Notes: generated by a model not told the origin, from the sequence alone. Shown: positions 175 through 35,297, counted from the first letter of the stretch. The stretch is 35,297 nucleotides of DNA from Reclinomonas americana ATCC 50394 (GCA_048213135.1 PS015383.1:76167-111463); one strand, 5' to 3'. Numbers and translations: made by a program.

Positions 175-1398
175 TTGGTGTCGGTGCGGCGGGAGCTGCG
201 CGACCTGCGCTGGAAATCGGAAGATGATCGCTCGCAGCTGCTGAGCACTGTGGGCGAGTACCTTGCCGAGCACGACCGCTGTGTGTACCGCTTGCACCTC
301 CTGTTGGAACAGGTGCTGAATTTGACCGCTGCCCCGGGCACCATCACCACCGTGCTGGAGCCACGACCCAATGTCAATCCAGTGGTGGCCACCGCCAGTT
401 TGTTGCGTGGGCTTGCGCTGCGCGAAGAGCAGTGCTTCTTGCTAACCCAGAGTGCGCAGGCTGGAACAAGTCAATGGCCTCCTCTCGACGCAGCTGACAA
501 AAGAGGTGGCGCAGCTGTCGGCGGCCGCAACTACTATGCGCTACGGTGATGATGTGGAGAGTGCCGGTGGCGACGGTGAGGGAAGACCACATTCGTCGGA
601 GAAGAGGAATGGAGCGGAGGGGGCGGCAGGCGATGCGGGGAGTGAGAGTTCAGAGTCGGAGGACAGTGACGAAGAGGGCGACGCGGCAGGCGACGGTGCC
701 TCCAAGGCCAGCAGTGTGCGCATCACCGAGGGCAACTCAGAGCTGCTATCCCGCCCTTCGCTGACGACGCGCCTGAGAAGAATACTCGAGCAGCTCGACA
801 TTCCACGTGGCAAGGTCGGTGACTGTCACACGCGCTGCACGTCGATGAAAATACCATCGACTCACCGTGTCGTCCATAGGAGCTGGTGGCCATCATTGTG
901 GAGCTGCGTCGACGCTTCCAGGAGCTCCAGGCACAGTACGAGCACGAGCGCCGACGAGTGGCATCGCGTGTCGGCGCCGTGCGCAACGAGATGAGTCTGA
1001 TTGCGGTGGAACGCGACACGCTGGCCATGTCGCTCAACAAGGACCACCGACTGTTGCTGCTCAAGTCACTGCCGTGAGTACAGTGCGAATCGCAGTCAAC
1101 AGGTTGCAGTGTCCATCGAATTTCTGAGTCTCCCCTTGGTGCGCAGGTTGGCACCTCCGTCTGGCGACGGAAAGAGTGTGGTGGAGCCGGGCTCGCCACC
1201 AGCCGAGTTGAAAATGCCCGAGGGCGTCGATTTTGGTGAGCGTGCTCAGTGGTCGCGTGTTCAATGGAAGTTTCGCTGACGCTCTCTGGTGGCGCAGGCA
1301 ACGATCTGAATGACCTCATGGTGCGCAAGGATCAACCGCAACCCAAGGGCGGCGACAGTGAGGATTCATACAGCAGCGACGACGACATTGGGGATTGA
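175..1398 (+). CDS. 3' part of an uncharacterised coiled-coil/acidic protein (5' end outside the window)
   Basis: Five exons (starting 175, 460, ~880, ~1147, ~1298) join in frame through GT-AG introns: LVSVRRELRDL...ELVAIIVELRRRFQELQAQYEHERRR...SSDDDIGD*, with TGA at 1396-1398. No family recognised. Confidence 0.75.
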
Positions 1399-1450
1399 TG
1401 TGACAACAACTACAACAGCAAACAACAACAACAACAAATACAATGTTCTT

Positions 1451-3508
1451 TTACAATTCAGTCGCCTTGATGTACTCCTGCATCATCTCGAAACACGCTT
1501 GTGGTTGATCAGCCGGAGCCTGCGACCACAATGTGGGGGAACGTTGGTTGATCATGACAAAGTGAGCTGGCGGAGTGGACGACGAACCATGTGACCGGCG
1601 TTGGCGACCACCACTTGTGTCATACCACCGGAGGTTGTGTACCAGCCGGCCGTGTTGTTGTTCACAATCCACACCTGTCGTGCGGCCGCCCGAAACGCCG
1701 CAGCTCCCGGCCACTCCAGCTTTTGCAGATAGCGATCGGTGCCCATTACTGGGAAAGAAAGAGAGGAGGTACGGTGAGTGGCGATGGTGTAGCGTGACAC
1801 GAGAGCATAATGACGCACAGTTGCAGATGAGATCCACCTGCGGTAAATCAGCGGTGAGTGGCGCGTTTAAGGCAGAGAGCATGAGGCGGAGCACGAAACA
1901 TTGCCGTTGTACACGAGCATGGGCATGACGGCGAGAATGTCGGGCCACAGTGGCAGTGAGGTTGGAGCATTGAGATCCGGAATCAACGCCGTCTCCACCT
2001 GCATGCACACCACGTGTGCTTGGTGCCGAGAAAAAAACAAAGTGCATGACAATGACCGACACACACCTGCGCGCCCTGAGCACCCCACGCTGGAGCACCG
2101 GGTGAAATGTGCAGTGCCTGCCGCACGTCACTCCGCGCGAGGTATTCGGCCACTCGTGGATCATCTGCTGCGTTGAATTGTCGAATGTCGTACTGCGTGG
2201 CGCGATTGTAAGTGAAGAGACTCGACGCACCAGCCGACCATCCTTCTTCGCAACTGGAGACACATTGCCACCGAGTGTGGTAATGGGATTCAACAGACCG
2301 TAGTAGCACGACGTGTTGAATGCGGTGACGTAATCGCCCTGCTCCAGCAGTTTCTTGCAGTTTTGCGCCTGCGCCGACAGGGCCACGAAATCCCTGCGCA
2401 ACGCAGTGCCTATGGTGAGATGGCGAAAGAAAAGCAGCTCCTCTACGCGATGCTTACGAACTGGGAACCAATCAGGCCATTGGCGTCTGTGCGCGAGAGA
2501 GTTAGTAGAGTAAGAGAGAACACAAGGCATGCGTCGACTGGGAGACGCACAAGCATAGTCCGGAAACGAAAGGTTCTGCTCGATGGGCTCCACCTGTGAC
2601 GGGAGTGCGGCGGTGAGTGACCAGTGGTGCTGATCGTGGCTCGGATGAATCCTCGCGCTTCGCTCTCACCCAGCCGTCACCAATGGCCACCCCGGCGACG
2701 TGCAGCGGATACGAGGGACCACGAACACGTCGCTGCTGCAACAGCTGCCACGCGATGTTGGGGGCCTGCAGGTTGTCGGCACGTGAGTATGACACACACG
2801 GTGATACGGGTTGAGCGAGCATGCACGCACCATGTGACCGGCAAACGACTCGCCCACAATGATCAGAGGCCGCTGCGCAAACCGCGGATGCTTCTCACAA
2901 AAAGAGAGCAGTGCGGCCTCGGCCGCACGGCGCAACTGCACCTCGTTCTGCACGTACCCACCGCCCGTGCCGTCGTGAACCGCCGAGAAACCAGTGCCAA
3001 AGGGCTGATCGAGGTACAAGACATCGGCCAGCGCCGTCCACGACCACGGTGCCTCCTCCAGCTGCGGAGTTGCACTAGTACTGCCGTCGACGCCACTGCG
3101 CTGCACACGGAACGGCCCATTCTCCGTGAACAAACCAAAGAGCGACGAGGCGCCCGGTCCACCCTGCAGCCACAGCAGCAGCGGCTTGGGCGACGATCGC
3201 GACTGCTGCTGCGACATGCTGTCCTCGATCAGCCAGTAAAAGAGCTGGCCGGGTACATTATCGGCCACAGTGGCATTGAGACTGTGTGGCGTAGGGGTCA
3301 TCAGTGACGGGGACGGGGGGAGTGAGCAGGAGCACGAGGCAATGATCCGCAACAATCCGGCGTGCATGACAAGTCGCGTTTGCAACGATGGTGGCAGGCC
3401 CGGCAGCGCTGTGATCAAGTCGGGCGATGCGGATTGGGAGGCTGTGGCATTGCACAGGGAGGCCGCCACGAGGAAGGCGAGGAGCGCGACAACTGTCGCT
3501 TGCGACAT
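1451..3508 (-). CDS. Secreted serine carboxypeptidase, peptidase family S10 (11 exons)
   Basis: Signal peptide MSQATVVALLAFLVAASLC. Family motifs HAGFLN, LFYW, PLLLWLQGGPGASS, FTENGP, YLDQPFGTGFS. Catalytic triad in GESFAG (Ser), NGNVDLIC (Asp) and NAGHMAPADQP (His). Ten GT-AG introns are all phase-compatible; stop TAA at 1451-1453. Confidence 0.95.
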
Positions 3509-3593: not shown

Positions 3594-6500
3594 ATGGCTG
3601 GCCGAAAGGGACGCTCCAAGGTACCTGCACTGGACATCACATACGCACACATGCAAGCCGTGCTGCATCTGCTGTTGTTGCATCGTCATGCATTGCATGT
3701 TGATCCCTCTCTTCCTCTTCTTCTCCCCTCTCCATCGCATCCCCCAATCCCCACTCCACTCTCTTCACTGCACGTATCACTCTTGTGCACGCTCGGTGTG
3801 CTCCCTTTTTTGTGTGTCTGTGGGTCGGTGATGTGCATCTGCACATGCACATGCACACACACTCACCCCCCTCGGCTCGCCCTGACAGGTCCGCGCGGCC
3901 GTGGACAAGAAGCGGAAGAAGAAGGGAAAGGTGTCGCCCAACTTTATGACACGCAACATGGCCATTCGCAAGCTGCAGATCACACTGCGCGACTTCCGCC
4001 GCCTCTGCATCATCAAGGGCGTGTATCCGCGTCAGCCGAAGAAGAAGCTCTCGGGGCGCGACAAGACCTACTACTACACCAAGGACATTATGTTCCTCAT
4101 GCACGAGCCGATTCTGCGCAAGCTGCGCGAGATCAAGGTCTCGATCATCGTCCAATCGTCTCTCTTTTCGTGCTCTGACCTTGCTGTTGCTGGCGACACA
4201 GGCACACAACAAGAAACTGACGCGCGCCGTCGGCCGCAGGGAGTACTCGACGGCCGACAATCTGCGTGCGCGCCGGCCAGTGTATCGCTTGGACCATGTG
4301 ATTCTGGAGCGGTACCCGAACTTCCAAGATGCACTGCGTGATCTCGACGACGCCCTCAATCTCGTGCACCTGTTCGCCGCACTGCCGCCCAACTCGAGCA
4401 TCAAGCAGCAGCGCATCACCAATTGCTCGCGCCTCGCCCGTGAGTTCCAGGCCTTTGTGCTGCAGACGGGCGCTCTGCGCAAGGTCTTTGTGTCCATCAA
4501 GGGCATTTACTACCGCGCCAAGGTCCTCGGCCAGGATATCACGTGGCTCGTACCGCATGCATTCACGCAACACGTACGTCGTGCGCCTCTGTCAGCAGAG
4601 AGGAGCGTGGCTCGTTGTTTTGTTGACTATGAGGCGGCGCTTGCAGGTGCCCTCGGACATCAACATGGAGGTCATGCTGACCTTCCTCGAGTTCTACGAG
4701 GTGCTCATGTGCTTTGTCAACTTCCGCTTGTACCAGTCCATCGGTCTGCGATACCCGCCGCCTCTGCCCGACGATGGTCTCCACGCACCCGGATACGTCA
4801 TTGATGCGGCGCTGAGTGCGGCGGCGGCCACAGCACCGAGCGAGGGAACTGTGTCGACGACCACCACCACCACCACCACCACCACCGCGACAGCATCTGC
4901 TGCTGCCGCTGTGTCGTCCGCTGCTGTCCGGGCTGCATCTGCGGCACGCTCCCGTACTCGGTTTGTTGGGCAGCCGTCGGTGGAGAGTTGACTGGTGGGT
5001 GGTGCTGACACTCACTCGTTCGTGATTGCGTGCAGCGTGGTCGACACGACGAGTGCCATGAAGACGCTGGCGGCGAAAATCTCGCAGATTCGCAAGAAGG
5101 ACTCGGGTGCTGTCGACGACGAGGATGACGTGGTGGAGATTGTCGCCTCGGCGCCAGCCTCGGACGACGAGGACAGCGACGACGACGATGAAGATGATGA
5201 TGATGAGGAGATGGAGGATGGTGACGAGGACGAGGAAGACGAGGATGGTGAGGCGCAGGAGGACGACGATGGTGAGTGCTGTTGGTCTCCGTCCAGTGCA
5301 CTGCATTCAGGTTCTCATGCTGTCCGCTGCAGTGGCGCTGTCGGAGGGCGAGATGGACGGTGAAGGGGAAGCGGAAGGCGAAGAGATGCAGCAGCCGGAT
5401 GAGCTCACCGAGGGTCTTGCCACCACCGCGGAAGAGCGCACGCAGCTGCGGGGCGATGCGCAAAAGGCGCCCCAGATCTTTGCCGGTCTCAAGTTCTTCT
5501 TGAGTCGCGAGGTTGGTGGTCGTCTGTGTTCGTGACACTTCTCTCCCCTTGTTTTTCCTCACTTGGTTGTCGGTGTTATTGCACAGACGCCGGTGGCCAC
5601 ACTCGATTTTGTGATTCGCTCCTTTGGCGGCGTTACGTCGTGGGCAGGCTGCACCATTCCTTCCGCATTTGTCGAGGGCGACTCGAGCATCACCCATGAG
5701 GTAAGATGCTGTCACTTGGCGCCCTTTGGTGACCCGTATAAGCTCACCGCGCGCGCTCTCAGGTGGTGGATCGCCCGCGACAGGCGCATCGCTTCCTGTC
5801 ACGCGAGTACGTGCAGCCGCAGGTGAGGACCAATCCGGGAGAAAGATTCCGTTCACGACAACCCTGACACGTGTTGTTGTCGTTTGTGTGCAGTGGGTGT
5901 TTGACTCGGTCAATGCCCGCATTCTGCTTCCGGTGGAGCCGTACATGCCGGGTCTCGCACCACCGCCACATTTGTCGCCGTTCGTGGACAACCGCCGCTT
6001 GGGGTGAATCTGCCTTCTCGTTGCTTGTGCAGTGGTTTTCTCCGACTCTTGGTCATGCTTACTCCCTCCCTCCCTCCCTCCCTCCTTTCCTTTCTGTTTC
6101 TGCAGATATATCCCGGAGCAGGCACTCAAAATTAAGCAGCTTATCGCCGAGAGTCGAGGCGAGCAGATTGCCAAGCTTGAAGCTGGTGCGCAACGGAGAA
6201 TTCTGGGGAAGCTCGCACACGAGGACACGGCTGGTGCACTGGAGGAGGAGGACGAGGAGGAGGAGCAGGAGCGCTACGTGCGCGAGCTGCAGGCGGAGGC
6301 CGCTGGTGTGTCGTACTCGGCCGCGCAGCACCGCAAGCAGAAGAAGGCTGGAAAAGGCATGCAGGTCGACGATGATGACGAGGAGGAGCATGGCGAAAAG
6401 GCTGCAGCGGACGGTGACGACGATGAGGAGGAGGAGATGGCGGTTGACCCAGGTGTGTGTGTGTGTGTGTCTGCGCGACAGTTCTCTATTTGGTGGGTCG

Positions 6501-18128: not shown

Positions 18129-21100
18129 CTACGACGGCGGCGCGTAGGTCGAGACGCCAGTTGCCGGATTGTAGTAGTAGACGCGTCCTTGCGCGTCGTA
18201 GTAGGCTTGCCAGGCGGTCGCTGCACTCGAAAGAGTGAGGATGCGGGAAAAAAGAATGAGAAGAGGAGCGTGCTAGGTGACGCAACGTTGTGGCGCTGCC
18301 GGCTGCGGGGCATAGGTCGGGTACGCATACTGGGAAGCGGGAGGCGCATACTGGGAAACGGGAGGCGCGTACGGAGCATACTGCTGTTGCTGAGGTGGAG
18401 CATACTGCTGTTGCTGCGGCGGGGCGTATTGTTGTTGCTGAGGTGGAGCATATTGCTGTTGCGGCGGAGCATATTGCTGCTGCTGCTGCTGCTGTTGTTG
18501 TTGTGCGTACGCCGCAGCGGTGACGGCGGTGGCAGACTGGGTGTAGGCGCTCGCGTAGCCGGACGGTGGCATGTACGCTTGACCGGCGGGCAACGTGTAG
18601 GGCGACGCTGACGCCGGCAGTGTCGTGGCGACGGGCGCCGCGGCTGGGGGCAGCGTGGCGGCGGAGGCGGTGGTGGCGGGCGCGGCAGCGACAACCACTG
18701 GAGCAGCTGGATTGTAGGCGGGCGGCGGTGGAGCGGACACTACTGGAGCGGCTGGATTGTAGGCTGGTGCCGGAGCAGCAGCCGGGAGTGTGGCGGCAGT
18801 GGCTGCAGGGAAGGCGGTTAGTGAGGGAAGACCGATGAATGACACACACATGCACTGGAGAAAGCACAAAAACGCACCAGTGACTGGCTGGCCCGCCGCT
18901 AATGTGGAAATGTACGGCGAAATGTACGAGTTGCCGAGAGAGGCTGGTGTGACAAAACGCATCGGCGTCAAGCCGCTGCTCGGGTCGGTCGATGCGGCCG
19001 CCGGCGCGGGGGAAGGCTGCCGCGGGGCGACCGTGGCTGTCGGCGACGACGATCGAGAACCCGGTGCGGCCAGGAAGCTGCCGCCAGTGGCCGGAGCCGG
19101 AGCCCACATGGCATACGATCCGGAGCCTGCAGTGGAGCTGGAACCGGAGCCAGAGCCGGACCGAGGGGCGGCCGGTGCAGCAGGCCCGCCGGCGGTCGCC
19201 GTCGGGGCGACCATGGGAACGGCAGCGGCAACAGGAGTGGCCCACATGGAAGCTGGCGCGGCGGAGGCCGCCGTGGTGGTCGTAGTCGTCGTCGTCATTG
19301 GTGGCGGCATCATCGCCTGCACGGGCGCACTGACGACCACCGGAGCACTTTCGTTGAACATTGGCGGCGGCGGCGGCGGCGCAGCAACGGCGACCGGAAG
19401 ACCAGTGGCAGTGGCCACAGGGGCGGCGACCGGCGTGCTGCACGTACCGTCAGACTCGTGCTGGTGGACGGGAAGAGTGAGAGAGGCGACACACCTGGCA
19501 GCTCGCTGCGACGGCGCTTGCACCAGAATCGGCGTGTTCGCCGGTGAGTGGGTGGGCGGTGGTGGCAACCAGTCGCGTGGTGCCTCCGGGGCAGCCTGCA
19601 TGCATACAAGGTGAGTATGAGGCCCAATCGAAGCGAGTGCGCTACAAGAACGAGAGACACACACCGAAGCTACCGACGACTGCGAATCGGTGGCCATGGT
19701 TCTCGTTGGCTCCGCGCCTCCAGCAACAGACACTGCGACGGCAGATGGTGAGTGTGGGGGCGGAGCAGTGCAGACGCGCAGTCTCATACGGAACTTTGTG
19801 CAAATGCCGCAGTCGCAGGTGCAATGCCTGCGCGACACCGTCAGAAGAATAAGAAGGACGAGTCATCTCTGCATAAAATACCACGCAACTCTCGGGTGCC
19901 TGGACGACGCGCATCGGGGTCGGTGCTGCCGGCGCCACAGCGGCCTCGATGTAGTCCATATACTGCAGCCGAGGAGCGAATACGTCCGACGGTTTGATGT
20001 GCTGTGCGACGCGCATCGTGAGACAATGGCACACCGCCAGCACATTAGTGCAATCAAGTGCGTCACCGTGGTACAAATCGGATGCGTGACGAAAATCTGC
20101 ACTCACACAGAAGGAGTGAGTGAGTGACGTGAGGACAGAGAGAAAGAATGCGAGAAACACAGGTCGCAGCAAGCGCAACTGGGAGCTCCATATGCACTTT
20201 CCGCTTCTTCTTGTTGCGCTTTTCGACTTCCACGTCGGCAAACACAAAGTAGGCAATGCGCACGAGGACGCCGCGGATACACGGCGGCGTCTGTGCCGGA
20301 ATCTCCAGCGACATGACCAGTGCGTCGGCATCAAAGTTGCCACTGGTGAGAACCGTGGTCTCGTCCGTGGTCTTGCCGTGCGCACGAAGCGTCTTGGTGC
20401 GCACCAGCGTTGCTGCCACATTCAACAGCACTGCACGCAACAAGCCACAGGTGAGGGCGCTGTGCCCGAGACAAGGAGCGTGAAAGGCAAGCAGAACGCA
20501 ACTGGCATCCGTCGACACGGTAAACGACACCACATCGCCAGCAAACTGCACCTGCCGCTCCGCTTGCAGCCTACGGAGTGTGAGTCGAACGCACCCAGCG
20601 ACAACGACAGAGGAGCATAACGCAACGACACCGAGTACGTCTTCTTGGTGACGGTCTTCACCACCGGCTGGAAAAACGCCTCGTCCTCCGACAACAAACA
20701 CTTTTGCAGCACAAACAGCGCCGCCCCGTCCTCAAACGCATCCGGCTGGCTCGCCGCACTGGCCACCGCAAAGTACGCCGAGGCCTGTGCCCACACTTTG
20801 CATCAACAACTCGTCCTCTTGCACGCAGACGACTGGCGTGCAAGGTAACCTGTCGCTTGGCGGCCACACATCGCACTCGGATCTCATATTGAATGTAGCC
20901 GGCCGAGTACGTGACCGTCGACACGGCATCGTCTTGCAAGTAGCATGAGAATGGCAGCTTGTACACTCCCGGTGCCATGACACAGCAACCAGTCGCCGCA
21001 TCGCGACCTGCAAGTGAGTGAGAAATCAGAGAAGGAACAATTGCAACACTGGTGCAGACTGAAGACTGAGAATGCGGAACTTTGCACCATGTGATCGGGA

Positions 21101-21492
21101 ATGATGAGGTTGCTGTCCTCTTGCGTCACCTCCGATGTCTCTGTGTGGCAGCGGCTTGCTGAGCAACAGCACACGGAGACAGAGAGAGAGACGGGCGCGG
21201 AATGTACCCTTGTGCGACTCGTCGAGCTTGACCAACTCTTTGCCAAAGACGCGCACACGCAGCAACGCAATCGCACGCTCCTCCGCCAGCTCCAGTGTCA
21301 CAGTGCCAGTCACCACTATAACACACAGTGTGTGTGAGAGCGAGAGAGAGACACAGACACACACACACACATAAGCGCGCAACTGCTTCCGCTGACGACA
21401 ATGCCTCGTCCAGGCACCTCAATGTGCACTGCACTCTCGCGCGGGATGTTGACAGCAGCAGCAGCTGCAGCAGCTGCAGTGGGCGCCCACAT
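18129..21492 (-). CDS. Alpha-arrestin-like protein (arrestin N + C domains) with Pro/Ala/Tyr/Gln-rich tail, PPxY motif and C-terminal WW domain (~15 exons)
   Basis: ATG at 21492. Arrestin-N: GSMVTGTVTLEL...LRVRVFGKE...MAPGVYKLPFSCYL...GYIQYEIRV. Arrestin-C: FAGDVVSFTV...LEIPAQTPPCIRGVLVRIAYFVFADV...MELPIFV. Phase-compatible linker exons (APESIAPATAAFAQMSVAGG) join these to the PPPPAY and YAPPQQQQ region. The last exon reads PTAWQAYYDAQGRVYYYNPATGVSTYAPPS*, a WW domain; TAG at 18129-18131. Confidence 0.82.
18325..18510 (-). repeat. Coding tandem repeat (YAPPQQQ(Q))x4 plus degenerate YAPP units and poly-Q
   Basis: 21-24 nt units in the arrestin-WW tail: YAPPQQQ-YAPPQQQQ-YAPPQQQQ-YAPPQQQQ-YAPYAPPVSQ-YAPPASQ. 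Confidence 0.9.
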
Positions 21493-21572: not shown

Positions 21573-22740
21573 ATGGCAACGCAAGCAACGAGTAACAGTG
21601 ATAGTGGTGGTATAGGCCGACTAGTGCACATTGCATGCTCCATTGTTGTGGCCGGAGCAAGCTTCTTTATGATCAAGATCACCGACGCAGTTTCGTGTGT
21701 TCTGTTCTCTCTCTTTCTTTGCGCGTGTCTGTGTTTTTCTCATGTGCAAAGCAGCTTCTTTTGTACACTGGAGAACCGGGTCAGCGACGCGCGTCGGAGT
21801 TGATTGAGGAGAGAGAGGATGAGTTCTTTCATGCGAGTTCCGCGCGGCGACGAGTCTACATGCAGCGCTTGATTGCGGCTCCGCGAAGTGCGCCACCACA
21901 GGCAGCAGCTCCTCCTCCTCCACCACAACCAGTGCAGCAGCAACAACAGCAACAAGTTCTCTTTCAACCCAGGCTCAGTTGCGTTTCTTGGTTGCTGTCC
22001 TTGTGATGTTGTTGTTGTCAGTCGTGCTCACTCTCTATCGTTTTGCACAGTGGATGTGCCGTTTCGTGTGATCGTTTGTCTCTCTTTGTTCTGCACACGT
22101 TGATCTTGTTGTTGTTGTTGGCGACAGTGAGCATCTCGCGGAGCATGTCAATCGTTTGTTGCAAGTGTGGAGTCGTTGCGTTCTGTTTGTTGTTTTTGGT
22201 GTGTGTTGTGTGGCGAGAGTGCTCATCTGTGTGTGTGTGGAATGTGGCGTAGAGGTCATGGGGATCAGTTGCGTCTGCGTTGTTGATTGTGGTTATCGAC
22301 GAGGCTGTCACTGATTGCTTCTCGTTTCTGTGTGGCCAGACTTGCATGATTTGCCTGTTGCGTGCCTCTTTTGTGTTGTCTTTTTGATGATGCGTGGTGG
22401 ATGCTCATGGCTGGTGTGCGAGTAGATTCGCGGAGAGGCCCTCGACGGCAATCGAATCGACCAGCACACTGCAATTCAAGTGTGTCGGACCGCGAATGAT
22501 CTGCTTGCTTCCGACGGTTCCGGCGACATGTTTCGTGTTTTCTTGCACGCACCGGTCATCCATCTGCTTGCTGACTCCGTTGTGCACAGTTGTGCCGTTT
22601 GCTTGGACCCGTATAACATCGACGAGCGACTACGAGTGCTTCCGTGTCATCACCGCTTCCATGTTGCGTGCATCGATGCGTGGCTCCAGCGCAACAGTCT
22701 GTGCCCCACATGCCGCCACGACGTCCTGGTTCCTGCGTGA
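21573..22740 (+). CDS. Transmembrane RING-H2 E3 ubiquitin ligase (ATL/RNF-like architecture), 8 exons including 4 microexons
   Basis: Exons 21573-21689, 21755-21977, 22051-22060, 22128-22153, 22253-22267, 22340-22356, 22426-22529 and 22590-22740. N-terminal hydrophobic segment LVHIACSIVVAGASFFMI, GLD-like ALDGNRIDQHT, and RING-H2 CAVCLDPY...LPCHHRFHVACIDAWLQRNSLCPTCR. Confidence 0.88.
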
Positions 22741-23247: not shown

Positions 23248-26200
23248 NNNNNNNNNNNNNNNNNNNNNNNNNNNNNNNNNNNNNNNNNNNNNNNNNNNNN
23301 NNNNNNNNNNNNNNNNNNNNNNNNNNNNNNNNNNNNNNNNNNNNNNNNNNNNNNNNNNNNNNNNNNNNNNNNNNNNNNNNNNNNNNNNNNNNNNNNNNNN
23401 NNNNNNNNNNNNNNNNNNNNNNNNNNNNNNNNNNNNNNNNNNNNNNNNNNNNNNNNNNNNNNNNNNNNNNNNNNNNNNNNNNNNNNNNNNNNNNNNNNNN
23501 NNNNNNNNNNNNNNNNNNNNNNNNNNNNNNNNNNNNNNNNNNNNNNNNNNNNNNNNNNNNNNNNNNNNNNNNNNNNNNNNNNNNNNNNNNNNNNNNNNNN
23601 NNNNNNNNNNNNNNNNNNNNNNNNNNNNNNNNNNNNNNNNNNNNNNNNNNNNNNNNNNNNNNNNNNNNNNNNNNNNNNNNNNNNNNNNNNNNNNNNNNNN
23701 NNNNNNNNNNNNNNNNNNNNNNNNNNNNNNNNNNNNNNNNNNNNNNNNNNNNNNNNNNNNNNNNNNNNNNNNNNNNNNNNNNNNNNNNNNNNNNNNNNNN
23801 NNNNNNNNNNNNNNNNNNNNNNNNNNNNNNNNNNNNNNNNNNNNNNNNNNNNNNNNNNNNNNNNNNNNNNNNNNNNNNNNNNNNNNNNNGTCGACGGTCG
23901 GAATATTGAGGTCGGGCATCTCCTCGAGATCGCCATGCGCCGCCACGGCTGCTGCTGACAGTGGCGCACCGGACTCACTCTTGCGGTCACTGGGCGAACG
24001 AGCCGCCGAACCGACGCCACCGTCGCGCGGCGAGTGTGGTCGAGTGTGCGTGCGCGAGCCGGGAGCCGAGAGTGTGGTTGGGGCCAGGCGCGGTGCATCG
24101 AGATACGCAGACCCATTGGCCAAGTCGGCGCGCGTCAGCTGTGCCACGAATTAGCAAACACGAGCACACGTCATCGACACGAGAAAGACTCGTACCTTGC
24201 GCAGATATGAAGTACGCTGCTGCGGACGTGCCACGAGTTCACCGGGTGGACTGTCTGATGTCGGTGCCACGGCGACTGGGACACCGGCCGGGCTTGACAC
24301 GTAAAGTGACTGCGGATGAGTGAAGTGAGTGAGTGAACCATCGAGTACCAAGTGTGGGCGCAACGAGGGAGTGAGCGTACCAGGAGATTGCGCGACTCGT
24401 TGAGGCGGACATCACGTTCCGGACTGGAGCTGTGCTGACTGCCGGTGGCGACGGCGGTGGGTGGCGAGGAGCGGCGATTGCGCAGTGTGCGTTGCGCAGC
24501 CTCCATCATGGGATCGCGTGGGGATGTGGGCGCCGAGGTTGCCGACTTGGTGCCGGCGCCGACAGTCAGATAGGTCGGCGAACGGGGTGCACTTCGCGCC
24601 GCTGGCGATCCAGCAGGTGGCGGCACCGGCACCAACGGTGCTGCTGCTGTCGCGGCTGCTGTTGTCGCCGACACGCGGAGCTGAGGAGACTTGGCAAGTG
24701 GCTCGAGAATGGAACTCATGGCCTGCGCTGCGCCACGCGGCGACGACGGCGCAGTGATGGAGGGCCGGCGTGCGTGCAAAGGCGACGCAGAATCGAGGCG
24801 GAAGCGCACCGACGGGCTCACGCGATGCGGAGGTTGCGGTGGTGAGCCAGCTGCCACTGGCGACAGGTGATCGCCCGTCGCACTGCTCCGCAGGCGATTT
24901 TGTGCTGCGGCCGACAGCGACGATGACGGAAGTGGTTCAAGTCGCGGTGTGCCTGGTCGAGGCTGCGGCAGCGCGACCGGTGAAACATGGCTGTCATCGG
25001 AGAGGAGGTTGGTGAGCGTGCTGAGGCGGGGAAAGAGCAGAGGGTGCTGGCAAACGCAACATGGTTGTTGGCGACGATGCCGTCACATCAACCGAGAGCG
25101 GCGGGAGGCGACGGGGAGTCGGCGGTCGCACCGGAGGCAACACAGTGGTTGTTGCCGTTGTGGCTATTGTCGGTTGTGGTGGTGGTGGCGAGCCAGACGA
25201 CAATTCTGTGACACACTCACTCAGCAATGGGCGCGCACTGAGATGGACGCGCCGGCACGTGCGAGACTCACCCTTGGCTTTCTGAACGGCCGACACCATT
25301 TTCTGCACGAGACTGGAGGGTCGGTTGCGGCCGGGTGATGGCGGTTGGCTCATCGAGCTGCTTCGTCTGGCCACGCGTTTCTGCAGCTGCTGCTGCAGTT
25401 GCTCAATGCCCTACACACACAGTTTTGTTGAGAAGAACACGCGTTCACCCCTTCGTCGGTCACACTCTCTCACCTCACGAGTGTCGAGCATCGCCATCAC
25501 AGCAGAACGCGCAATGCCACTGGCGGTGGGCGCCGCCACCGACGACACCTTGTCGCGATCTGGAGTCTCCGGAAGTCGCAACTGCGGCACCTGCACGGGT
25601 GAGTTCGGCAATTGCGCCAACGGGGCCGCCAGATTCAGGTGCCCGATGATCACAGTCGAGAACAGCTCGCCGAGCGAACCCCTGCGTGCATTCACAACAG
25701 GGAGTGAGACGCACGACGGGGGAACGCCGAGTTACAACCCCTGGCCACCACGAAACTTGCCACCAAAGAGGACCAGCTGCGGCAGCGGGCCGACGGTGAT
25801 CACACAGGCGTGCTTGGAGCGCGGAGTAATGGCGTCAGAATCACGACGAGTCCACGGCTCTGCCGCAGGTGGCGCATCCCGATTCGCTGCCGCCATGGCG
25901 TGGTCCTCCAGGGCGTCTACCACAAGCGGAAGAACACGCAGTGAGCTCACGACTCGCAGTGCATTCGAAGAGCGCATGCAACGCACCGGCATTGGCCACC
26001 CAGCAGTCGCCGAGAGCATCTTGCCGATGATTGATGCCTCCAATGACGACAAGGATGCGGCCGAAAGACGACAGAGTCATGAACGAGCGCGGGCAAATCT
26101 GCTCCTGCACTCCCAAAAACGTCCACACGTTGGTGGTGGTGTCGTACACAAACAGCTCGTTGCTGTACTTGCTCTGCTGGTCACAAAAGCCGCCAAAGAG

Positions 26201-27328
26201 GAACAGGCCTGAGCGGTGCAGCACCAGGGTCAGAATAACGCACCGATGAGTACGCCTGTCAGTGCGAGGACGACGCAACGAGTGCCGACCGCAGTCATGG
26301 CATGACCGCACCGTGGCGATGGCACCTGTCCCTTCGGTTGCAACAGCGTGTACTCGTGGTCGCGCAAGTCAAACGAGCACATGCTATCGGTGGCGCGCAC
26401 GGAACCATCAAACACTTGCTGATTGCCTCCGAACACATACACAGTGGTGCCAACACGCGCACAGGCGGCCTCGTAGCGACCACGGAAAGTCGGGGGCATG
26501 CGCACGCGCTCAAAGTGCCCCGAGCCGTCACCCTTGTGCTTGTACCACTTGCGTTGCAGGCGCAAGCAGTACACATTGTGCAGACTGCAACACAGTCAGC
26601 TACCGACGCGAACACACGGCTGCGTTGTGACAGAGCGCAACATGTTCCCCGACGCGTCGAGTCCAGAGAAGAGATACACGTGGGCGCCAGAGGAGAACGC
26701 CAAGTGGTCGGTGCGACACAGCGGGTTTGCCACACCACCCGAACCCATCATGAGCGATGCCAGTGCCGGCGACGAGTTGAGCGCCACCGCCGCTATACAC
26801 AATACAAGAAAGAGTCAGCACTCTGCATATGGTGTCGCACTCCTTTGTAACGCTCACCGGCACTCGGGGCCTCCCAGGTGGTTGGCGGACGCGCCCATTC
26901 TCCCGATCCCGGCAGCTGAATGACACCAAAGCCTCCGTCGAGTGCCGCCGACGACTTGGACTGTCGACTCCATCCTCCGCACACCAACACACCACTCTCC
27001 GTGGCAGTCACTGTGGCGACGAGTGAGACAGAGTGTGATGTGTTTGACTGCATCAATGTGTTCGCAACTCGTGTGACCGACGCGTCCACTCAGCGACTAC
27101 ACACACACACACACACAGTGAGTGTTCTGTGGAGACGGAGAGCACAGTGTGTGTGAGGGAGAGGCGCACCTCATTGTATGGCACAAAAGGAGCAGCGATA
27201 ATGGAAGTGGTGACTGCTGAAGGCGACGAGGCCGACGCGTGAGACTCGCGCGGTGGTGACGGAGGCCTCTTTTGCTCTGCCGCAGTGTGCGACTCCTCCA
27301 CAGAGAGCACCTCAAATGTCAAGTCCAT
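22904..27328 (-). CDS. Kelch-repeat (beta-propeller) protein with long Ser/Pro/Arg-rich C-terminus; spans an assembly gap
   Basis: ATG at 27328. Kelch repeats after splicing: GRVGHTMTATESGVLVCGG, RTDHLAFSSGAHVYLFSG, RYEAACARVGTTVYVFGG, PSPRCGHAMTAVGTRLFLFGG...ELFVYDTTTNVW, PRSFMTLSSFGRILVVIGG, PRSKHACV...LVLFGGKG. The terminal exon ending at 22904 is assigned across the gap and is less certain. Confidence 0.85.
23197..23246. repeat. (GA)n microsatellite at gap edge
   Basis: Perfect GA run immediately before the N block; intronic in the kelch gene model. Confidence 0.95.
23248..23889. other. Assembly gap
   Basis: Run of N inside the kelch gene. Confidence 0.99.
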
Positions 27329-27434: not shown

Positions 27435-30235
27435 TCATGTCGCGTCGTCGCCGGCACCGGCGAGAGCACGGGCGCGAGCTTCCCACATGGGTACTTCGTC
27501 GTCGCGACCGGCACGGCGGAGCACCAGCACGAGATTGCTGTAGGCCAGTGCGAAACCGGGCCACAAGCGGATGGCTTCCATGTAGTCTGCAGCGAGAAGG
27601 TCATTTTCTGAGATTTGTACCGAGACGCGCCTTGCCATGTACTTACCATTGATGGCTTCTGTGAACTGGTTGAGGGCGGTATATGCATTCTGTGCAAAAA
27701 GGCAAAATGCGTTAAGAATCTCAATGTCAGCAAAAAAATCGCGATTGCCAAGAGCACGCACTCCGCCTGTGAAATAACACAACAACAAACGGTGAGGGAA
27801 TCGCCGGTGCATCAGAAACAAGCGAAGAAACGAGCGAAGGGAAAAACGGCCGCCCCCCAAGAGGACGCACGATTCTGCAGGGAGAATCGCAGGTCAGCAA
27901 ACAACGTTCCGCACCGGGCCGTAGCATCTGTATTCATATATTCCACCCGACTCCGCGACGCAACATTCAGCGCTGTCCAGTTGTTCGCGTCCAACGCCAG
28001 TGCTCTTGTGCAGTCGTCTCTGTTATTTTGCACACAACATGCGATTCGCACGTCAGCGGACATGCACACGCAAAAGACAGGGGGACGTTGTCGTGCTGAC
28101 CTCGCTCCCATGAAGTCTCGCATGCAGTACAACGAATCGCCGTGCGCCACCCACGCCATGGAGCACTCGGGGTCCAACCACAATGCGTGCTCCGAGTCCC
28201 GCAACCCTGCGGCAACGACGGCGGTGTCAGGATGTGCAGAACAACAAACATGCAGTTGAATGGAGGTCACCGTCGTCGATGCGTCGACACCGATTGTGAC
28301 TTCTCGCTCGCCCGCACCACGCCAGCACAAGCCGTGGATCCAGTTCAATGGCCTCGTCTGTTGTTGCCGGAGAACATCATCATCATGAGGAGGAGAATGG
28401 CAGACAGGCAAAAGGTGAATGAAACAAGGCGACGCAACCGTACAGACGGGTGGCTTCCGCGAAATTACGATCGCGATACATGGTGTCGGCATCGCGCAAC
28501 TTGCGCAGTGCTCGCGATCGCCGAGCACTCGCTGCATGCGTCTCCAATGTCAACATCCACCAGCAAACAAGGGAGGTCAGTGCTGCAGATCCCTTTGCGA
28601 ACCTCTAGAAAACACTTGTGCACCACGGGCAAGCACCGTCGACATTGGTAATGCCAGCGCCATGTTGGCGACCCGTCCCGAAATGTCGGCCTTGATCAGC
28701 TCGTCTTGAATCGCCGCGTCCGCTGTGACCGACGAAGTCCCAATGTGTGTGATGAGCTGTGTAATGCACGAGCACATCCGACGGACGCACCTTCAGAGAC
28801 CGCCAGCAGCACCTGCAACATCTCTTCGACCCAGTCGATGCGAGGGATGCTGGCCGCCGACTCCAACCAACTCAGCGTCAACGGCACCATGCACAGGTAC
28901 CGGAAGGCACCGCTATTGCCGCGATGATCTGCGACAGCATGGAGAGGGGTTGGTGTGAGTGTGAAGCAGACACTTACTCGAAACTCTAGCACCAACGCAC
29001 CGGTCACCGCATTGCGGAGCGTCCGCAGCAGTGCGAGCGAGAGCATGTCCTCGCCCGTCCGTGACACTTCGCTCACCGCCAACGGCAACATGGCTTCACC
29101 CAACAACGAGAAGCGGTGGCACAAGCAGCGGAGCAGAACACGCAGACCCTCACAGTCGTGAAACGCATCCTGATTCCGTACACAACCTGCACAGACCAGT
29201 GAGCGATTTCAGTCCCTGCACAACTCTCTCGTTCACCTCCCGCAGACGAACCGGCCATGGCGTTCCCGATGCAGCCGAGCAGACATGAGGCAAGGAATGT
29301 CGGCGTTGACTCGCTGACCGCGCGAATCAGCAGCGACATGCCGTCGCAGTCGGCCAGCTCATGCTTGCTTTCGGAGCATTCTGTTTTCCGCACGCGTCAT
29401 CAGCGTCTTCACCACACACACCACACGCAAAGCGACACGCACCACACAAGAGAGCCCAGAGCGCAGCAGCCGCACGCTCACGGATCACAAGCGGCACCGA
29501 CGACGGCGGCGCAATCTGCATCAACAGAAGACTCGCGGCTCCCTGCTGCGCGGCCAGTCGTCGCTGCGCCGGGTTCACTGTACGCGCACAGAGAACAGAT
29601 CAGCTGTAAGCAACATGGCGGTCCACACACGTGCACACACACATACCATGTAACAGATCCGATAGCGTCGCCAGCGCCTCGACCAGCACCGACTCATCGA
29701 CACAGACACCACGCAACACACCCAACAACTGCGACAAGACCACCACCTGCTGCTGCCCGACAACCACCACATCCACCGTCGGCGTGGTGCTGACCGCCCG
29801 CTCATCCACCGCAACCACATTCCTCCGCGACACTTCTTCCACGGCGACCACCACCACCTCCTCCACTTCCTCTACATCATCATCTTCTTCGACCTCTGCC
29901 AATTCCCGCTTGGCGCACCACGGCGCACCACTCGGAGCGATCTTTGATCGCGTTATCAGTGGTGGCGGCGGTGGTGGTGAAGATGAGAGAGGAGAAGGCA
30001 GTGGAGGCTGCGCGCGTGCTCTCCGAACGCGTTGCGCTGGTGGTCGACGCGGTGCGATCGGCGAGTATGAATGCAGCGGACCGGCCACGGAAGACGAGGA
30101 CGAGGACGACGAGGAGGAGGAGGATCGCGATGCTGGCGCGTCGCGATTCGCTGTGTACGTGAGAGAGTGAGAGAGAGTGCTAGTGTAAGTGACTTAAAGC
30201 GAGCGCGCTTTCGGCGATGAGAATGACGCACCCAT
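27435..30235 (-). CDS. Armadillo-like repeat + C-terminal TPR repeat protein (~15 exons, including 4-nt and 5-nt microexons)
   Basis: ATG at 30235 (4-nt first coding exon, in-frame stop upstream). ARM-like helices: RERAAAALWALL, CLLGCIGNAMAGCVRNQDAFHDCEGLRVLL, ALLRTLRNAV. TPRs: ADTMYRDRNFAEATRLYDEAIELDP, AWCGRARSH...DSEHALWLDP, AWVAHGDSLY...DCTRALALDA, ALNNRGNAYTALNQFTEAINDYMEAIRLWP, ALAYSNL. TGA at 27435-27437. Confidence 0.85.
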
Positions 30236-30630: not shown

Positions 30631-33600
30631 ATGAACACTCCGTCGCGTGTGCTCGCGCGCCGCGTGCGGGAGAGCGGTGCCACCAGCACGCAACGACAAC
30701 AACAACAACAACAACAGGCGCGACTGGAGAGTGTGAGTGGCCGCGGCGGTCTGCTCATCAATGCCGCCACTCTGGCCGCCCTCGCACCTCCATCCGCGTC
30801 TGCGCCCAAGTCGGGTGGGTACCCGGTGGTGCCGGAGGCGCAGANNNNNNNNNNNNNNNNNNNNNNNNNNNNNNNNNNNNNNNNNNNNNNNNNNNNNNNN
30901 NNNNNNNNNNNNNNNNNNNNNNNNNNNNNNNNNNNNNNNNNNNNNNNNNNNNNNNNNNNNNNNNNNNNNNNNNNNNNNNNNNNNNNNNNNNNNNNNNNNN
31001 NNNNNNNNNNNNNNNNNNNNNNNNNNNNNNNNNNNNNNNNNNNNNNNNNNNNNNNNNNNNNNNNNNNNNNNNNNNNNNNNNNNNNNNNNNNNNNNNNNNN
31101 NNNNNNNNNNNNNNNNNNNNNNNNNNNNNNNNNNNNNNNNNNNNNNNNNNNNNNNNNNNNNNNNNNNNNNNNNNNNNNNNNNNNNNNNNNNNNNNNNNNN
31201 NNNNNNNNNNNNNNNNNNNNNNNNNNNNNNNNNNNNNNNGTCGTCGGTGCTCGCACCAAGCATGGTGTCTGTGGAAAAGTACCCGGGTGTGGTTCGCTTG
31301 CATCACAACGACTATCCGGCCCTGCTGGACCCCGACCTCGACGCTCTCGAGGCGCGCAAGCAGCGGCGAGGGACGATTGACCTCGCCACAGCTTCCATGT
31401 TTCGTCTGCCCGGATCCGCAGCTCCAACTCCCAAGCCGCAGGCTGGACTGTCATCTATTCACGAGGCGCGATCGGATGCCGATGAACTCAGCAGGTTCCG
31501 TTGCATCCGCACCGTGCGCACAAGAGCCATCATCGTGCACTCATTATGTCTTGCGTGTGAGCAGTGCTCTGCTGGGCAACCCGTCGCTCGGACGCGTCCA
31601 CGACGTGCCGCGACCGCGCGTGGAACTGACGCAGGCTGAACGCATGTTGTCGCAATTGAATGCCAAGCATGGCATTGTGGATAGCGCGCCGCCGGTTGCA
31701 GTGGCGTCGGCGATACCCGTGCGTCCGGTGCCATCGTGGACACTGCCGAACGAGGTGTTGCGCGCGGCGGCCCAGAAGCAGAATGGAGATCCGACGCACT
31801 GGGGCGACCAGGTGGTAAGCCCCGACGCCAGTGAGTTGGCGATGCTCACTGGCCTGGTGGAGGTGTGTGTGTATGATGACAGCGATTGCTGTGTGTCGTG
31901 GGTGTGCGCGAACTCATGTGTCTCCCCCAATGTGTGTCTCTCACCACAGCCCTCCAATCGTCTGGGTTCTCCGGCCTTGGCGCCAATCGACGCCCTGCAA
32001 CGCGACTCATCGCCTCTGGGAGTGGTGCAGCCGTACGCTGCGGAGGAGGGGCTCGGTGCTGATGCCTCGTTTGATGACATGGTGGCGAACCTGCTGCGGC
32101 GGCAGGGTGGTGATGAGGAGGGAGAGGCGGGCGGAGAAATGCTGGACACTGGCCAGATGCCGCCAGAGATGCTCATGCAACAACTGCAGGAGCTGCAAGA
32201 GCAGCTCGGCATTGGTGCCGACGAACTTGCACATGTCCTCGATGCTCATGCGCAAGGTGCCGAATTCGTGCGTCCTTTGCATCAAGAGTTGCCTGAGGAA
32301 GGGCTGGCGGCGGAGGGAAGTGGCCTCGGTCTCCCCACGGCACCGTCAGAAGGTGTTGCAGAGTTGATGGCTTCGGCTGTGACGGCGGAAACAACTGCGG
32401 CGGTGAACTCGCCGACACCTCCTCCGCCACTTGTCGCCTCGCCACACCCGGTGAGTCCTGCTTGAATTCAGAGAGAGAGGGGTGTTGTCATCGGCATTCT
32501 CACACATGGAAATGTGTACAGCCTCCCCCCGAAATCGACCTGGCGGCGTTTGGTATGACCATTCCCGACATCAAGTTGCCGCCGCTGCCGGTGGAGGAGG
32601 TGCCAGTGGTGGCGGTGGCGGAGCAGCAGTCACACGTGAATGAGCCGTCGTCCTCGCGTGCCGCGGACGCGTCTGCGTTGGCGGTCGTGCCGCAGACACC
32701 AGTAACAGTGGTGACCACTGTTGCGTGTGATTGTGGTGTTCCGTAGCAGATGCGCTTGGATTCTTTCACCAACATTTCTGCACTGGAACGCAGGTGACGG
32801 CCACTCTCTCACCAGAGCAACTGGAGGAGATGGAATCGCAGCGCCGGAGATTGGACGAAGAAGAACGGCTGCTGGAGGAGCAGCGCAGATTACAGCAGGA
32901 GATGTTGGTGCATCAGGCAGAGCAGGATCGCCTGCAGGCCGAGCAGGCCAAGATGCAGGAGGAGATGGATCGTTGCGTGTGTGTGTCGCGCATGGGAGTT
33001 GTTTTCCGTGTGCACTCGTATCCTCACGTCTCCCAACCACTCGCCAGAGCGCATGCGTGAGTTGCAGGAGCAACTGAGGCAGCAGAACGATGTGTACGCA
33101 CAAAGCCTGCTGAAATACGGAGAGGACATGGACGAGAAACTGCGCGCGCAGCAACAGAGTCAACTCGCGAAACAGGAAGTGCGTTGTTGCAACGACTTTG
33201 AAGCTTACCTCCTCTCATGTTATTAATATGTGTGTCGGCAACCAGGAAGAACTGCGGAGACTGGAGGCAGAATTTAAGTACCAGCAGCAGCAGCTGGTCG
33301 AGCAAGAGGTCAGTGAGCGTCACCGGTGGCACAAAGTTTGCTGCGATCGCGGCGTTTGATGATGGTGGCTCATTGTGGGCGATTGCAGCTGAAAGTGGAG
33401 CTGGAGAAGCAACTTGCTGCGCAGCGGCAGGGCATGCAAGAGGAGCTGTTGTCGCTGATGGAACAGCAGCGAGCCGAATTAGCGCGTTCACAGGCCGAGG
33501 CCGACAAGGCCATGCAGGAGGAGCAAGTGAAGATCATGTCGGAGAACTTGCGCGTGCAGCTGGAAGAGGAGCGCCGGTGTGTATTGATTTGCGGATTAGC

Positions 33601-35297
33601 CCCTCTCCTGCTCGGTGTGGGATCTCTCTCTCAACCTTGCCTGCGTGTTGTGTCTGCGCGCAGTCGCCAAGACGAACAACAAAAATCAATGATGGAGGAG
33701 CGCCAGCAAGCACTGCTGAAGGAGCTGGAGGAGCAGGTTGGTGGAGCGTCGGTGAACCATCGATGCGTGTCAATTCTGCTGAACCGCATTGATCGTGCTG
33801 TAGCTGGCATCGCAAGCGGCTGCTCGACTAAAGGTGGAACAGGAGCGACTGGAGCGGGAGCGTGAGGAGGCGGAACGCAGTCGAGAAGCCATGCGACAGC
33901 AAATCGAACAGCAGCGACAGATGCTGGAGGCGCTGGAGGAGAGGCGACGCAAGGAGCTGCAGGAGATGGAGCAGCGATTGGAGTTGTTGAATCAGCAGCG
34001 AGTGGAGGAGCAGACGAAGCTGCGAGGTAATTTTAAGGAGTGTGTTGACGTGCTCGTTCCTAGTTGCTTACTGTGTCCGGGGCAGAGGAACAACGTCTCC
34101 TGATGGAGGCAGAGCGACAGCGTGTGGATGAGGAGCGACAACGTCTGCACGACGAAATCCGGCAGGCCACGGAGGTGGCAGTGGCGGCGGCCAAGGCAGC
34201 CGCTGCATCGGCTGCTACCGCGGCCGCCATTCCGCACGCAGCATTGCAGGCCGCAGAGCAGGCATCGATTGCTGCCGCGCAGCAACAGCAGCAGCAACAA
34301 CAACAATGGCAGCAGCAGCAGCAGCAGCAGCAGCCGCAGTATGTGAAACCGTCGCCAGAGGCATTCGAGATCAGTGGTGTTCCTGGTGCAGGACCAAGTG
34401 CGGCCGGCGATGCTGCGTCTCAGTCGTCGGTGCTCTACACTGGATCGCTGCCGCCGCAGCAGGTGGCCGGGGCGGTGCCGTCGTCGGTCAGTGACGCGAG
34501 AGAGAACTGCAGTGCTCATGCAAAGCTATTTGTCACTTATTCTCGTATGCCAGGAGTCGGCCAAGGCGCGTGCTGGCGGTCGTGCAGACGGCAGTGCCGT
34601 TGGAGGCGACGTCAAGCTGACTGGTCAAGCGGGTCTGGGTGTCCTCGGCACACCAGGCATGATTTCTGTTGCGTCCTCAGTGCGCCACTGCGCATTTATG
34701 TGCACGCTGTGATGTGTGTAATTCTGACCCTATCTTCTGTATTTTTTTGCAGCCTTTGGCTGGCGGCGGCGATGCGGACGTGTCGGTGGCCGGCCGTGCC
34801 GCCAATCCAGCGCGATCGGCAGCGCTCAGTCCGCGAAGCAATGCCAGCAGCACACCGCGTTCCGGTGCCAGTGGCGAGGAGTGGGAGCCACGACCGGAGC
34901 CGCTGCGGTTATCGCAGACGCCAACACGGCAGTTGAACCAAGCTATTCCGCTGGCCCAACCCGCTCTGCTGGCCTCACGCACCACCCCGAGCCCACCGCC
35001 AATCGCGGCACCAGCGTCTCTCTCCGCGTCACCGCCTCGTCGGTCGCGTGCCTCGCTGTCGCCACCCGAGTACTCCACACGACTGCGTGACCTGTCACCA
35101 CCCGGGGGCTCATCGCGGCTGTATGGGCGCACTCCGCTCGAATTGTCGTATCAGGCGGTCGACCGCATTGATGAGTTCGCTCGGCAGCACGCCTCCGGTG
35201 AGGCACCGGTGGAGGAGAAAGCAGCCGTACGACTTCCACCGCTGGTGCGGCCGGCGCCGCCGTCGGCAGCCTCCATTGCTCAGTCGCTGTCGCGTAC
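30631..35297 (+). CDS. Large uncharacterised protein with long E/Q/R-rich coiled coil and Ser/Pro-rich regions; 3' end beyond the window; spans a gap
   Basis: ATG at 30631 with an in-frame stop at 30601. At least 12 phase-compatible GT-AG introns follow the gap. Heptad-rich exons at ~32794-34200 (EQLEEMESQRRRLDEEERLLEEQRRLQQE...). The frame is still open at the window end. Joining the 5' exon across the gap is an assumption. Confidence 0.75.
30845..31239. other. Assembly gap
   Basis: Run of N. Confidence 0.99.

Follow-up and report, generated by a model that had tools for sequence, protein, structure and literature searches.

Few features of intron starts vary as little across eukaryotes as the G at position +5, and to our knowledge pairing of 5' splice sites outside the normal register has been described only for a small fraction of human sites. 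Roca and Krainer reportedly described, in 2009, mammalian 5' splice sites of the form /GUUAAGU that are recognized in a shifted register. Here we analyzed a single window, that is, the whole stretch of 35,297 bases of nuclear eukaryotic DNA (about 58% G+C) from Reclinomonas americana ATCC 50394 (GCA_048213135.1 PS015383.1:76167-111463), and found a second class of 5' splice site (donor) in it, GTTNCGT, in which the conserved G lies at +6 instead of +5 and the preceding exon seldom ends in G. For human sites, the available text of Tan et al. 2016 (PMC4856993) puts noncanonical registers of the validated kinds at 1.5% of 201,541 sites, and at 5.1% in a first projection.

As far as the accessible literature on them goes, the mammalian /GUUAAGU sites are like the class in having GU at +1/+2, U at +3 and the consensus one base downstream, and in being cut at the GU without reliance on a G at -1. 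The human shifted sites are rare and single with the core AAGU, whereas the class, known here from sequence, makes up 18 of 62 introns in the window and has the core GCGU with an obligatory C. The bulge and asymmetric-loop registers of Tan et al. 2016 (PMC4856993, available text) also recall the class, which has one extra U between the GU and the equivalent of the +5 G; a bulge in the pairing with U1 small nuclear RNA (snRNA) keeps the exon-side pairing, however, and the class avoids a G at -1 (2 of 29 sites), which brings it closer to a shift. Donors have further been divided into AG//GUNNN and NN//GURAG types, with anticorrelated exon and intron contacts and a +5 G in both (accessible parts of PMC11732430 and PMC9803359). 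The window resembles that division, as those parts present it, in holding two separable classes within one genome and in the anticorrelation of the exon G with the intron motif, but the two described types share one register and the +5 G, whereas the intron motif of the class is displaced by one base. In Ostreococcus, an atypical donor consensus, GTGCGTG, and two intron populations were reported, with matching snRNA changes suggested (Irimia and Roy 2008, PMC2483917, available text). The ordinary donors of the window, GTG[C/A]GT(G), together with CTGAC-type branch sites and about 58% G+C, resemble that consensus; the populations described in Ostreococcus are distinguished by chromosome and by the strength of their signals, with no one-base shift between them. 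We found no tie of the window to Ostreococcus, and the matches of its pescadillo gene are spread over unrelated lineages. Literal-string searches of open-access text, supplements excluded, found no paper with GTTGCGT/GUUGCGU (or the forms GTTNCGT and GTTGCG) as a splice motif, a weak indication that it has not been published before, and a phrase search of the literature for unusual or divergent 5' splice sites gave nothing relevant.

The first-pass annotation of the window had listed 29 introns starting with GTTGCG, GTTTCG or GTTCCG, about a third of some 90 modelled by hand. We found GTT[GTC]CG at all 29 positions on the strand given, and the bases before the cut (A 12, T 10, C 5, G 2) were identical to those reported. 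The motif itself is real, but the hexamer described it incompletely, the conserved unit being 7 nucleotides (nt) long with T at +7 in 22 of the 29 sites. The total also came out lower: our final set holds 62 modelled introns, 18 of the GTTNCG class and 44 ordinary, so that the share of the class is 29%, in this window only. GTTNCGT occurs in 38 copies on both strands, against an expectation of 18.8 ± 4.3, and none of 100 dinucleotide shuffles reached 38. At 27 of the 29 listed sites a regular expression matched CT[ACG]A[CT] and a subsequent YAG within 30-135 nt; the implied introns measured 56-90 nt, with one exception (122 nt by the expression, 74 nt in the gene model).

Intron-like sequence followed 26 of the 38 GTTNCGT copies, compared to 1032 of all 4700 GT hexamers (22%; binomial P = 1e-9). 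Among control heptamers it followed 9 of 58 GT[ACG]NCGT, 10 of 52 GTTNCG[ACG] and 0 of 4 GTTNAGT. These near-neighbour motifs are at baseline for intron-like downstream sequence, and the base at +3 is specifically T (26/38 for GTTNCGT vs 9/58 for GT[ACG]NCGT). The heptamer alone is insufficient, since copies at 22663, 3113, 26405 and 5632 lie within coding exons, and the listed sites 19794, 21080, 21383 and 22357 are supported by the motif and a downstream branch site and acceptor only. Together with three junctions fixed to the residue by homologs (3353, 2254 and 1899), these results rule out chance; they confirm a second donor class in the window and show the boundaries of its introns to be GT...AG.

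We applied a custom Viterbi gene finder whose score combines codon usage, GT...AG, length and a branch-like motif, the last exon bases being left unscored. Started with only GT as donor information, it called 42 introns, 9 of them at GTTNCG. Once the codon table had been trained and the intron penalty reduced, it called 61, and the commonest donor was GTTGCG (11 of 61), followed by GTGCGT (6); among all 4700 GT hexamers of the window, GTTGCG accounts for 56 (P = 2e-10). The listed sites were recovered in 13 of 29 cases without a donor model and in 19 of 29 with a self-trained one. An unsupervised two-component mixture fitted to donor positions +3 to +8 returned GTG[A/C]GT(G) (62%) and GTTGCGT (38%). 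All class members have +5 C and +6 G by definition, and the unsupervised fit agrees. Several class introns were skipped or misplaced by the finder until it was given two profiles, and such introns will be misplaced by gene finders whose training rests on a single donor profile. A false call of the finder, GTTACGT at 5632, was rejected as a class member; by pescadillo homologs it is coding sequence (GVTSW).

Genes were identified by Pfam searches of 376 stop-to-stop open reading frames (ORFs) of at least 60 residues:

3508-1451, minus strand: S10 serine carboxypeptidase gene (Pfam)
3958-6750, plus strand: pescadillo gene (Pfam)
about 21400-18129, minus strand: arrestin-like gene with a terminal WW domain (Pfam; WW confirmed)
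about 21669-22760, plus strand: RING-H2 gene (Pfam)
27328-23890, minus strand: Kelch-repeat gene (Pfam)
about 28553-27435, minus strand: TPR gene, weak (Pfam)

The pescadillo and S10 models were curated by homology and replaced those of the gene finder, giving 16 homology-fixed introns (10 in S10, 6 in pescadillo). The class junctions that bear on homologs or domains are the following:

1838..1899, minus strand: GTTTCGT-class intron of the S10 gene, 62 nt, -1 T; YNGN|VDLICN gap-free against 6 homologs (about 50% identity); found in the donor-agnostic run, P=5
2193..2254, minus strand: GTTGCGA-class intron of the S10 gene, 62 nt, -1 A; VSP|YDIR gap-free against homologs
3282..3353, minus strand: GTTGCGG-class intron of the S10 gene, 72 nt, -1 T; HAGF|LNA fits homologs
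18221..18286, minus strand: GTTGCGT-class intron before the WW domain, 66 nt, -1 C; donor-agnostic pick; in-frame TAG inside
22530..22589, plus strand: GTTTCGT-class intron before the RING-H2 domain, 60 nt, -1 T; splice ...GDI|CAVCLD; no stop codon forcing it
26209..26279, minus strand: GTTGCGT-class intron of the Kelch gene, 71 nt, -1 C; donor-agnostic pick; CGHAMTAVGT-R-LFLFGG
27011..27068, minus strand: GTTGCGA candidate intron of the Kelch gene, 58 nt, -1 A; splice GHTMTATESGVLVCGGW; the finder chose GTGTGTG at 27114
27875..27964, minus strand: GTTGCGT-class intron of the TPR gene, 90 nt, -1 T; LDANNWTALN|NRA; no finder gene model
28358..28438, minus strand: GTTGCGT-class intron of the TPR gene, 81 nt, -1 G; FAEATRLY-D-EAIELDP

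When the spliced S10 protein was aligned with homologs (the closest 44-56% identical to the query exon, plus distant ones), all three class junctions were gap-free, among them HAGF|LN and NGN|VDLIC, which had been regarded as fixed by reading frame and conserved motifs. The intron at 3353 is in frame and stop-free, and its removal is evident from homology alone: if retained, it would add 24 residues absent from homologs. At 2254, a cut one base downstream (G|TTGCGT) was ruled out by the conserved Y after the junction. Within the same GTTGCGA intron, a perfect ordinary donor, ctg|GTGCGT, stands at 2230 (minus strand), 24 nt past 2254, in the same frame and 38 nt before the acceptor. Its use would give 8 extra residues (VAKKDGRL) seen in no homolog; the site may serve as an alternative donor or may just lie too near the 3' end.

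Domain boundaries were in line with two further junctions. The exon after the 18286 intron covers positions 4-31 of 31 of the Pfam WW domain (E 2e-10), and the Pfam zf-RING_2 domain begins at the C right after the 22530 intron (CAVCLD). The splices at 26279 and 27068 give what we take to be Kelch-blade-like spacing, and those at 27964 and 28438 presumably TPR spacing, both judged against the usual consensuses. The exon downstream of the 28438 intron matched TPR_17 and TPR_11 weakly (E 0.06-0.18, below the Pfam cut-off), and Pfam searches of the split TPR and Kelch pieces gave sub-threshold matches only. The Kelch exon gave 898 multi-stretch, repeat-level matches to proteins, none below 1e-30, and the protein search found no homolog of the arrestin-like exon.

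Length, branch motif and 3' end were compared between 19 class introns, a set that included the false member at 5632, and the 44 ordinary ones. The median length was 72 nt in the class and 70 nt in ordinary introns; a branch-like CT[ACG]A[CT], with a median distance to the 3' end of 19 and 21 nt, was present in 17/19 and 35/44, and CAG 3' ends were found in 18/19 and 36/44. Because length, branch motif and CAG end are common to both, the class is the same kind of intron as the ordinary one, U2-type GT-AG. In both classes the commonest branch-like motif was CTCAC (15/35 ordinary, 9/17 class), followed by CTGAC; C is uncommon as the favourite at the R position of CTRAY. U12-type introns carry a /RTATCCTT 5' site and a TCCTTAAC branch site. 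The class is like them in being a minority with its own rigid 5' motif, but it has neither the U12 5' motif nor the U12 branch site; its 5' ends are GTTNCGT and its branch motif, length and CAG end are as in ordinary introns, and a U12-type assignment was ruled out. Intron interiors were no more alike within the class than elsewhere (mean local alignment scores: class-class 6.27, ordinary-ordinary 6.30, class-ordinary 6.36, shuffled 5.85), and exon tail and intron tail had zero identity in 15 of 16 class introns, that is, no duplicated ends. The lack of interior likeness and of target-site duplication ruled out an introner or other mobile family.

The first-pass annotation had further proposed that the class is the ordinary G|GTGCGT motif slid by one nucleotide, and that it lacks the -1 G typical of ordinary donors. 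The sequence statistics support both points. A -1 G was found in 2/29 of the earlier list but in 32/44 ordinary donors (Fisher P = 1.3e-8), with G at about 29% at this position in the background; in the final set the class count was 1/18 (Fisher P = 1.5e-6), and among homology-fixed introns the counts were 0/3 for the class and 9/13 for ordinary donors. Aligned on the CGU core, ordinary positions -1 to +6 (GGTGCGT) and class positions +1 to +7 (GTTGCGT) differ at one place, and the free positions of the class match the ordinary profile moved by one base. Thus, +4 of the class (G 21, T 5, C 3, A 0; n=29) mirrors the ordinary +3 (G 31, T 8, A 3, C 2; n=44), +7 (T 22/29) mirrors +6 (T 31/44), +8 (G 11/29) mirrors +7 (G 20/44), and -1 (A 12, T 10, C 5, G 2) mirrors -2 (A 15, C 14, T 9, G 6). 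We also calculated log-likelihoods of the 29 listed sites under the ordinary donor profile:

exon positions -3..-1: same register -137.0; shifted -117.3; background -124.8
intron positions +4 and +7..+10: same register -220.4; shifted -162.6; background -201.8

On the exon side the shifted mapping was ahead of the same-register one by 12-20 log units, on the intron side by 36-58, and it was also above background.

Shifted-register recognition is probably the mechanism of the class. In the reading that we favor, class introns would be ordinary short U2-type GT-AG introns whose 5' recognition element is displaced one base inward, so that the same snRNAs recognize it in a shifted register; judged from sequence, we give this a probability of roughly 55%. 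The ordinary G|GUG[C/A/U]GU(G) and the class N|GUUGCGU(G) would share the core string G-[G/U]-U-G-C-G-U, with the first intron G of the class taking the place of the ordinary last exon G, and the class would have no need for a -1 G because its +1 G occupies that place. The same snRNAs would pair with both classes, U1 early and U6 later, one extra U being looped out; for the class the pairing register would be displaced by one base and contain a single mismatch, at U+2, and the cut would stay at the sole available GU. Since the shifted register would cost a mismatch, only the best-pairing core might be tolerated, namely +5 C, +6 G and +7 U; from such a pairing threshold, an snRNA with G opposite the +5 C is predicted.

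A fuller version of this reading can be put forward only tentatively. The spliceosome here may routinely work in two registers, in a proportion of about 70:30, with one U1/U6 element placed either at the cut or one base downstream, and with an snRNA G, in place of U or pseudouridine, opposite the C of GCGU; only C would then be allowed in the shifted class because of that G. The two registers may have been kept because the last exon base is freed from being G. Phase-2 introns make up 7/18 of the class and 6/44 of ordinary introns (P = 0.04), an excess which, in this small sample, would fit a benefit from a free last exon base.

Several points weigh against recognition in a shifted register by the same snRNAs. 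The base at +5 of the class is always C, whereas the ordinary +4 is A 15, C 14, T 11 and G 4; a simple shift leaves this obligatory C unaccounted for, and the standard U1 5' end would pair better with A than with C. The class is also unevenly spread, with 0/9 introns in the pescadillo gene and 0/5 in a gene at 28577-30235 but 5/9 in the arrestin/WW gene and 5/10 in the Kelch gene; six listed sites, all of the class, fall in the RING gene. A pure recognition model does not predict such a spread. The class junctions fixed by homology number three, the others resting on the gene finder or on motifs, and by homolog alignment the finder's donors were wrong at 4 of 9 positions in pescadillo. Finally, a single 35-kb window supplied both the definition of the class and the data for testing it.

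The strict C bears most directly on a variant snRNA reserved for the class, which could be a second U1 or an altered U6 and would pair with GUUGCGU in the normal register, so that two RNAs serve two classes. Such an RNA would explain the obligatory C equally well: GTTNAGT was intron-like in 0/4 cases although A (15) is as frequent as C (14) at the ordinary +4, which points to a specific complement, and the uneven spread over genes would fit differential use. We nevertheless consider it rather unlikely. Positions -3 to -1 and +8 to +10 match the ordinary profile displaced by one base, which a single RNA in a shifted register predicts for free, and the window contains no snRNA gene at Rfam gathering scores; with E up to 1, Rfam gave 8 weak matches in it to microRNA, small-RNA and untranslated-region families, none of them an snRNA.

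The earlier proposal had left the choice between shifted and bulged pairing, and of the two only the shifted register fits well. In a bulged register, G+1 and U+2 would pair with U1 normally, one of the two U's would be flipped out, and GCGU would serve as +3 to +6. The intron-side mapping is then the same as for a shift and fits equally, the extra base is always U (26/38 for GTTNCGT vs 9/58 for GT[ACG]NCGT), and bulges at +2/+3 are described at human sites (PMC4856993, available text). The exon side speaks for the shift: a bulge would leave -1 free to pair, with G favored or at least neutral there, but G was seen in 2/29 against 32/44 and a background of about 29%, and the exon bases score below background in the same-register profile (-137.0 vs -124.8). 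The shifted register is favored because a bulged one would keep the -1 G preference, and we regard the bulge as clearly unlikely.

It is improbable that there is no separate mode at all and that the class is merely the intron-heavy end of the AG//GUNNN versus NN//GURAG seesaw in a genome with an odd consensus. The anticorrelation of -1 G with a strong intron motif is as in that model (PMC11732430, accessible part), and ordinary donors with CGT at +4 to +6 have a -1 G in 7/12 cases vs 25/32 for the others, a difference that is not significant (P = 0.26); but the seesaw keeps the +5 G, whereas the class has +5 C and +6 G, the two-component fit separates the classes cleanly, and the intermediates GT[ACG]NCGT stay at baseline (9/58). 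Very improbable is an artefact of wrong gene models, or a shared origin from one mobile introner family carrying GTTGCGT, for which weak models, a 10-nt exon at 22051-22060, the four motif-only sites, finder errors elsewhere and the clustering of the class in some genes could be cited, but against which stand three junctions fixed by homologs, class interiors no more alike than ordinary ones, and 15/16 introns without duplicated ends.

Recognition by the same snRNAs in a shifted register is, in our assessment, a well-supported lead from one window and not yet a result. If borne out genome-wide by RNA data and snRNA genes, it would make shifted-register recognition a major mode and not a rarity. 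With about 3 of 10 introns having G at +6 and no exon-end G, a shifted mode could carry a large share of splicing; the choice of the cut site would be uncoupled from the U1 register on a genomic scale, and the introns would supply numerous natural examples in which to study how the cut site is set once U1 has left.

The other listed introns and candidates of the class are as follows:

402..459, plus strand: GTTGCGT-class intron, 58 nt, -1 T; donor-agnostic pick; CTAAC then CAG
19733..19794, minus strand: GTTCCGT candidate intron, 62 nt, -1 A; motif + CTCAC + CAG only; models merge it with 19889 as one 157-nt intron
19828..19889, minus strand: GTTGCGT-class donor, -1 A; donor-agnostic pick; 3' end uncertain, 62 nt (regular expression) or 157 nt (model)
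20097..20179, minus strand: GTTGCGC-class donor, -1 A; donor-agnostic pick; alternative acceptors, 83 or 178 nt, 3' end uncertain
20431..20502, minus strand: GTTGCGT-class intron, 72 nt, -1 A; donor-agnostic pick at P<=7.5
20571..20626, minus strand: GTTGCGT-class intron, called ambiguous earlier, 56 nt, -1 C; donor-agnostic pick at P<=7.5
21008..21080, minus strand: GTTCCGC candidate intron, 73 nt, -1 A; motif + CTGAT + CAG only; outside gene models
21316..21383, minus strand: GTTGCGC candidate intron, 68 nt, -1 A; motif + CTCAC + YAG only; outside gene models
21690..21754, plus strand: GTTTCGT-class intron of the RING-finger gene, 65 nt, -1 A; self-trained model, P=6
21978..22050, plus strand: GTTGCGT-class intron of the RING-finger gene, 73 nt, -1 A; self-trained model, P=6
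22061..22127, plus strand: GTTTCGT candidate intron, doubtful, -1 C; implies the 10-nt exon 22051-22060
22175..22252, plus strand: GTTGCGT candidate absent from the earlier list, 78 nt, -1 C; intron-like downstream; needed for the RING frame by hand reading
22268..22339, plus strand: GTTGCGT-class intron of the RING-finger gene, 72 nt, -1 A; self-trained model, P=6
22357..22425, plus strand: GTTGCGT candidate intron, 69 nt, -1 T; motif + CTCAT + TAG only; outside gene models
24991..25060, minus strand: GTTGCGT-class intron of the Kelch gene, 70 nt, -1 T; donor-agnostic pick
25682..25756, minus strand: GTTTCGT-class intron of the Kelch gene, 75 nt, -1 A; self-trained model
26585..26641, minus strand: GTTGCGC-class intron of the Kelch gene, 57 nt, -1 T; donor-agnostic pick
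31495..31564, plus strand: GTTCCGT-class intron, 70 nt, -1 G; donor-agnostic pick
32720..32793, plus strand: GTTGCGT-class intron, 74 nt, -1 T; self-trained model
32972..33047, plus strand: GTTGCGT-class intron, 76 nt, -1 C; donor-agnostic pick
34668..34752, plus strand: GTTGCGT-class intron, 85 nt, -1 T; donor-agnostic pick

The regular expression found no CTVAY..YAG after the donor at 22061, and the model gives a 192-nt intron instead. Read by hand, the RING-finger gene at 22051-22356 (plus strand) has putative exons of 10, 47, 15 and 17 nt between GTTNCGT introns, with the frame open to the RING-H2 domain; micro-exons of 10-47 nt are unusual. In the pescadillo gene, the homology-fixed intron at 4138-4201 (plus strand; REIK|AHNKKL) starts with aag|GTCTCGAT. 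This donor has +5 C and +6 G as in the new class, but +3 C and -1 G, and fits neither class; a similar sequence, GTGTCGAC, occurs in the TPR gene near 28288 (minus strand).

Short introns are dense throughout the window, which contains runs of N at 17472-17491, 23248-23889 and 30845-31239. In a collection of 5.8 billion proteins, the best protein identity was 56% for S10 and 64% for pescadillo, the best pescadillo matches being scattered over fungi, haptophytes, amoebae and algae. No near-identical protein was found in that collection, so the lineage is poorly sampled; pescadillo loci on metagenome contigs numbered 62, with identity never above 58%. Two long ORFs on the plus strand, at 8845-10782 and 14867-16714, have runs of Q/A/S/P, one intron or none, and no Pfam match, in contrast to the neighboring genes with 9-12 introns each. 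At the window edge, positions 1-128 (plus strand) are taken up by a (GT)n microsatellite with some 64 units, inside which the gene finder wrongly opened an intron.

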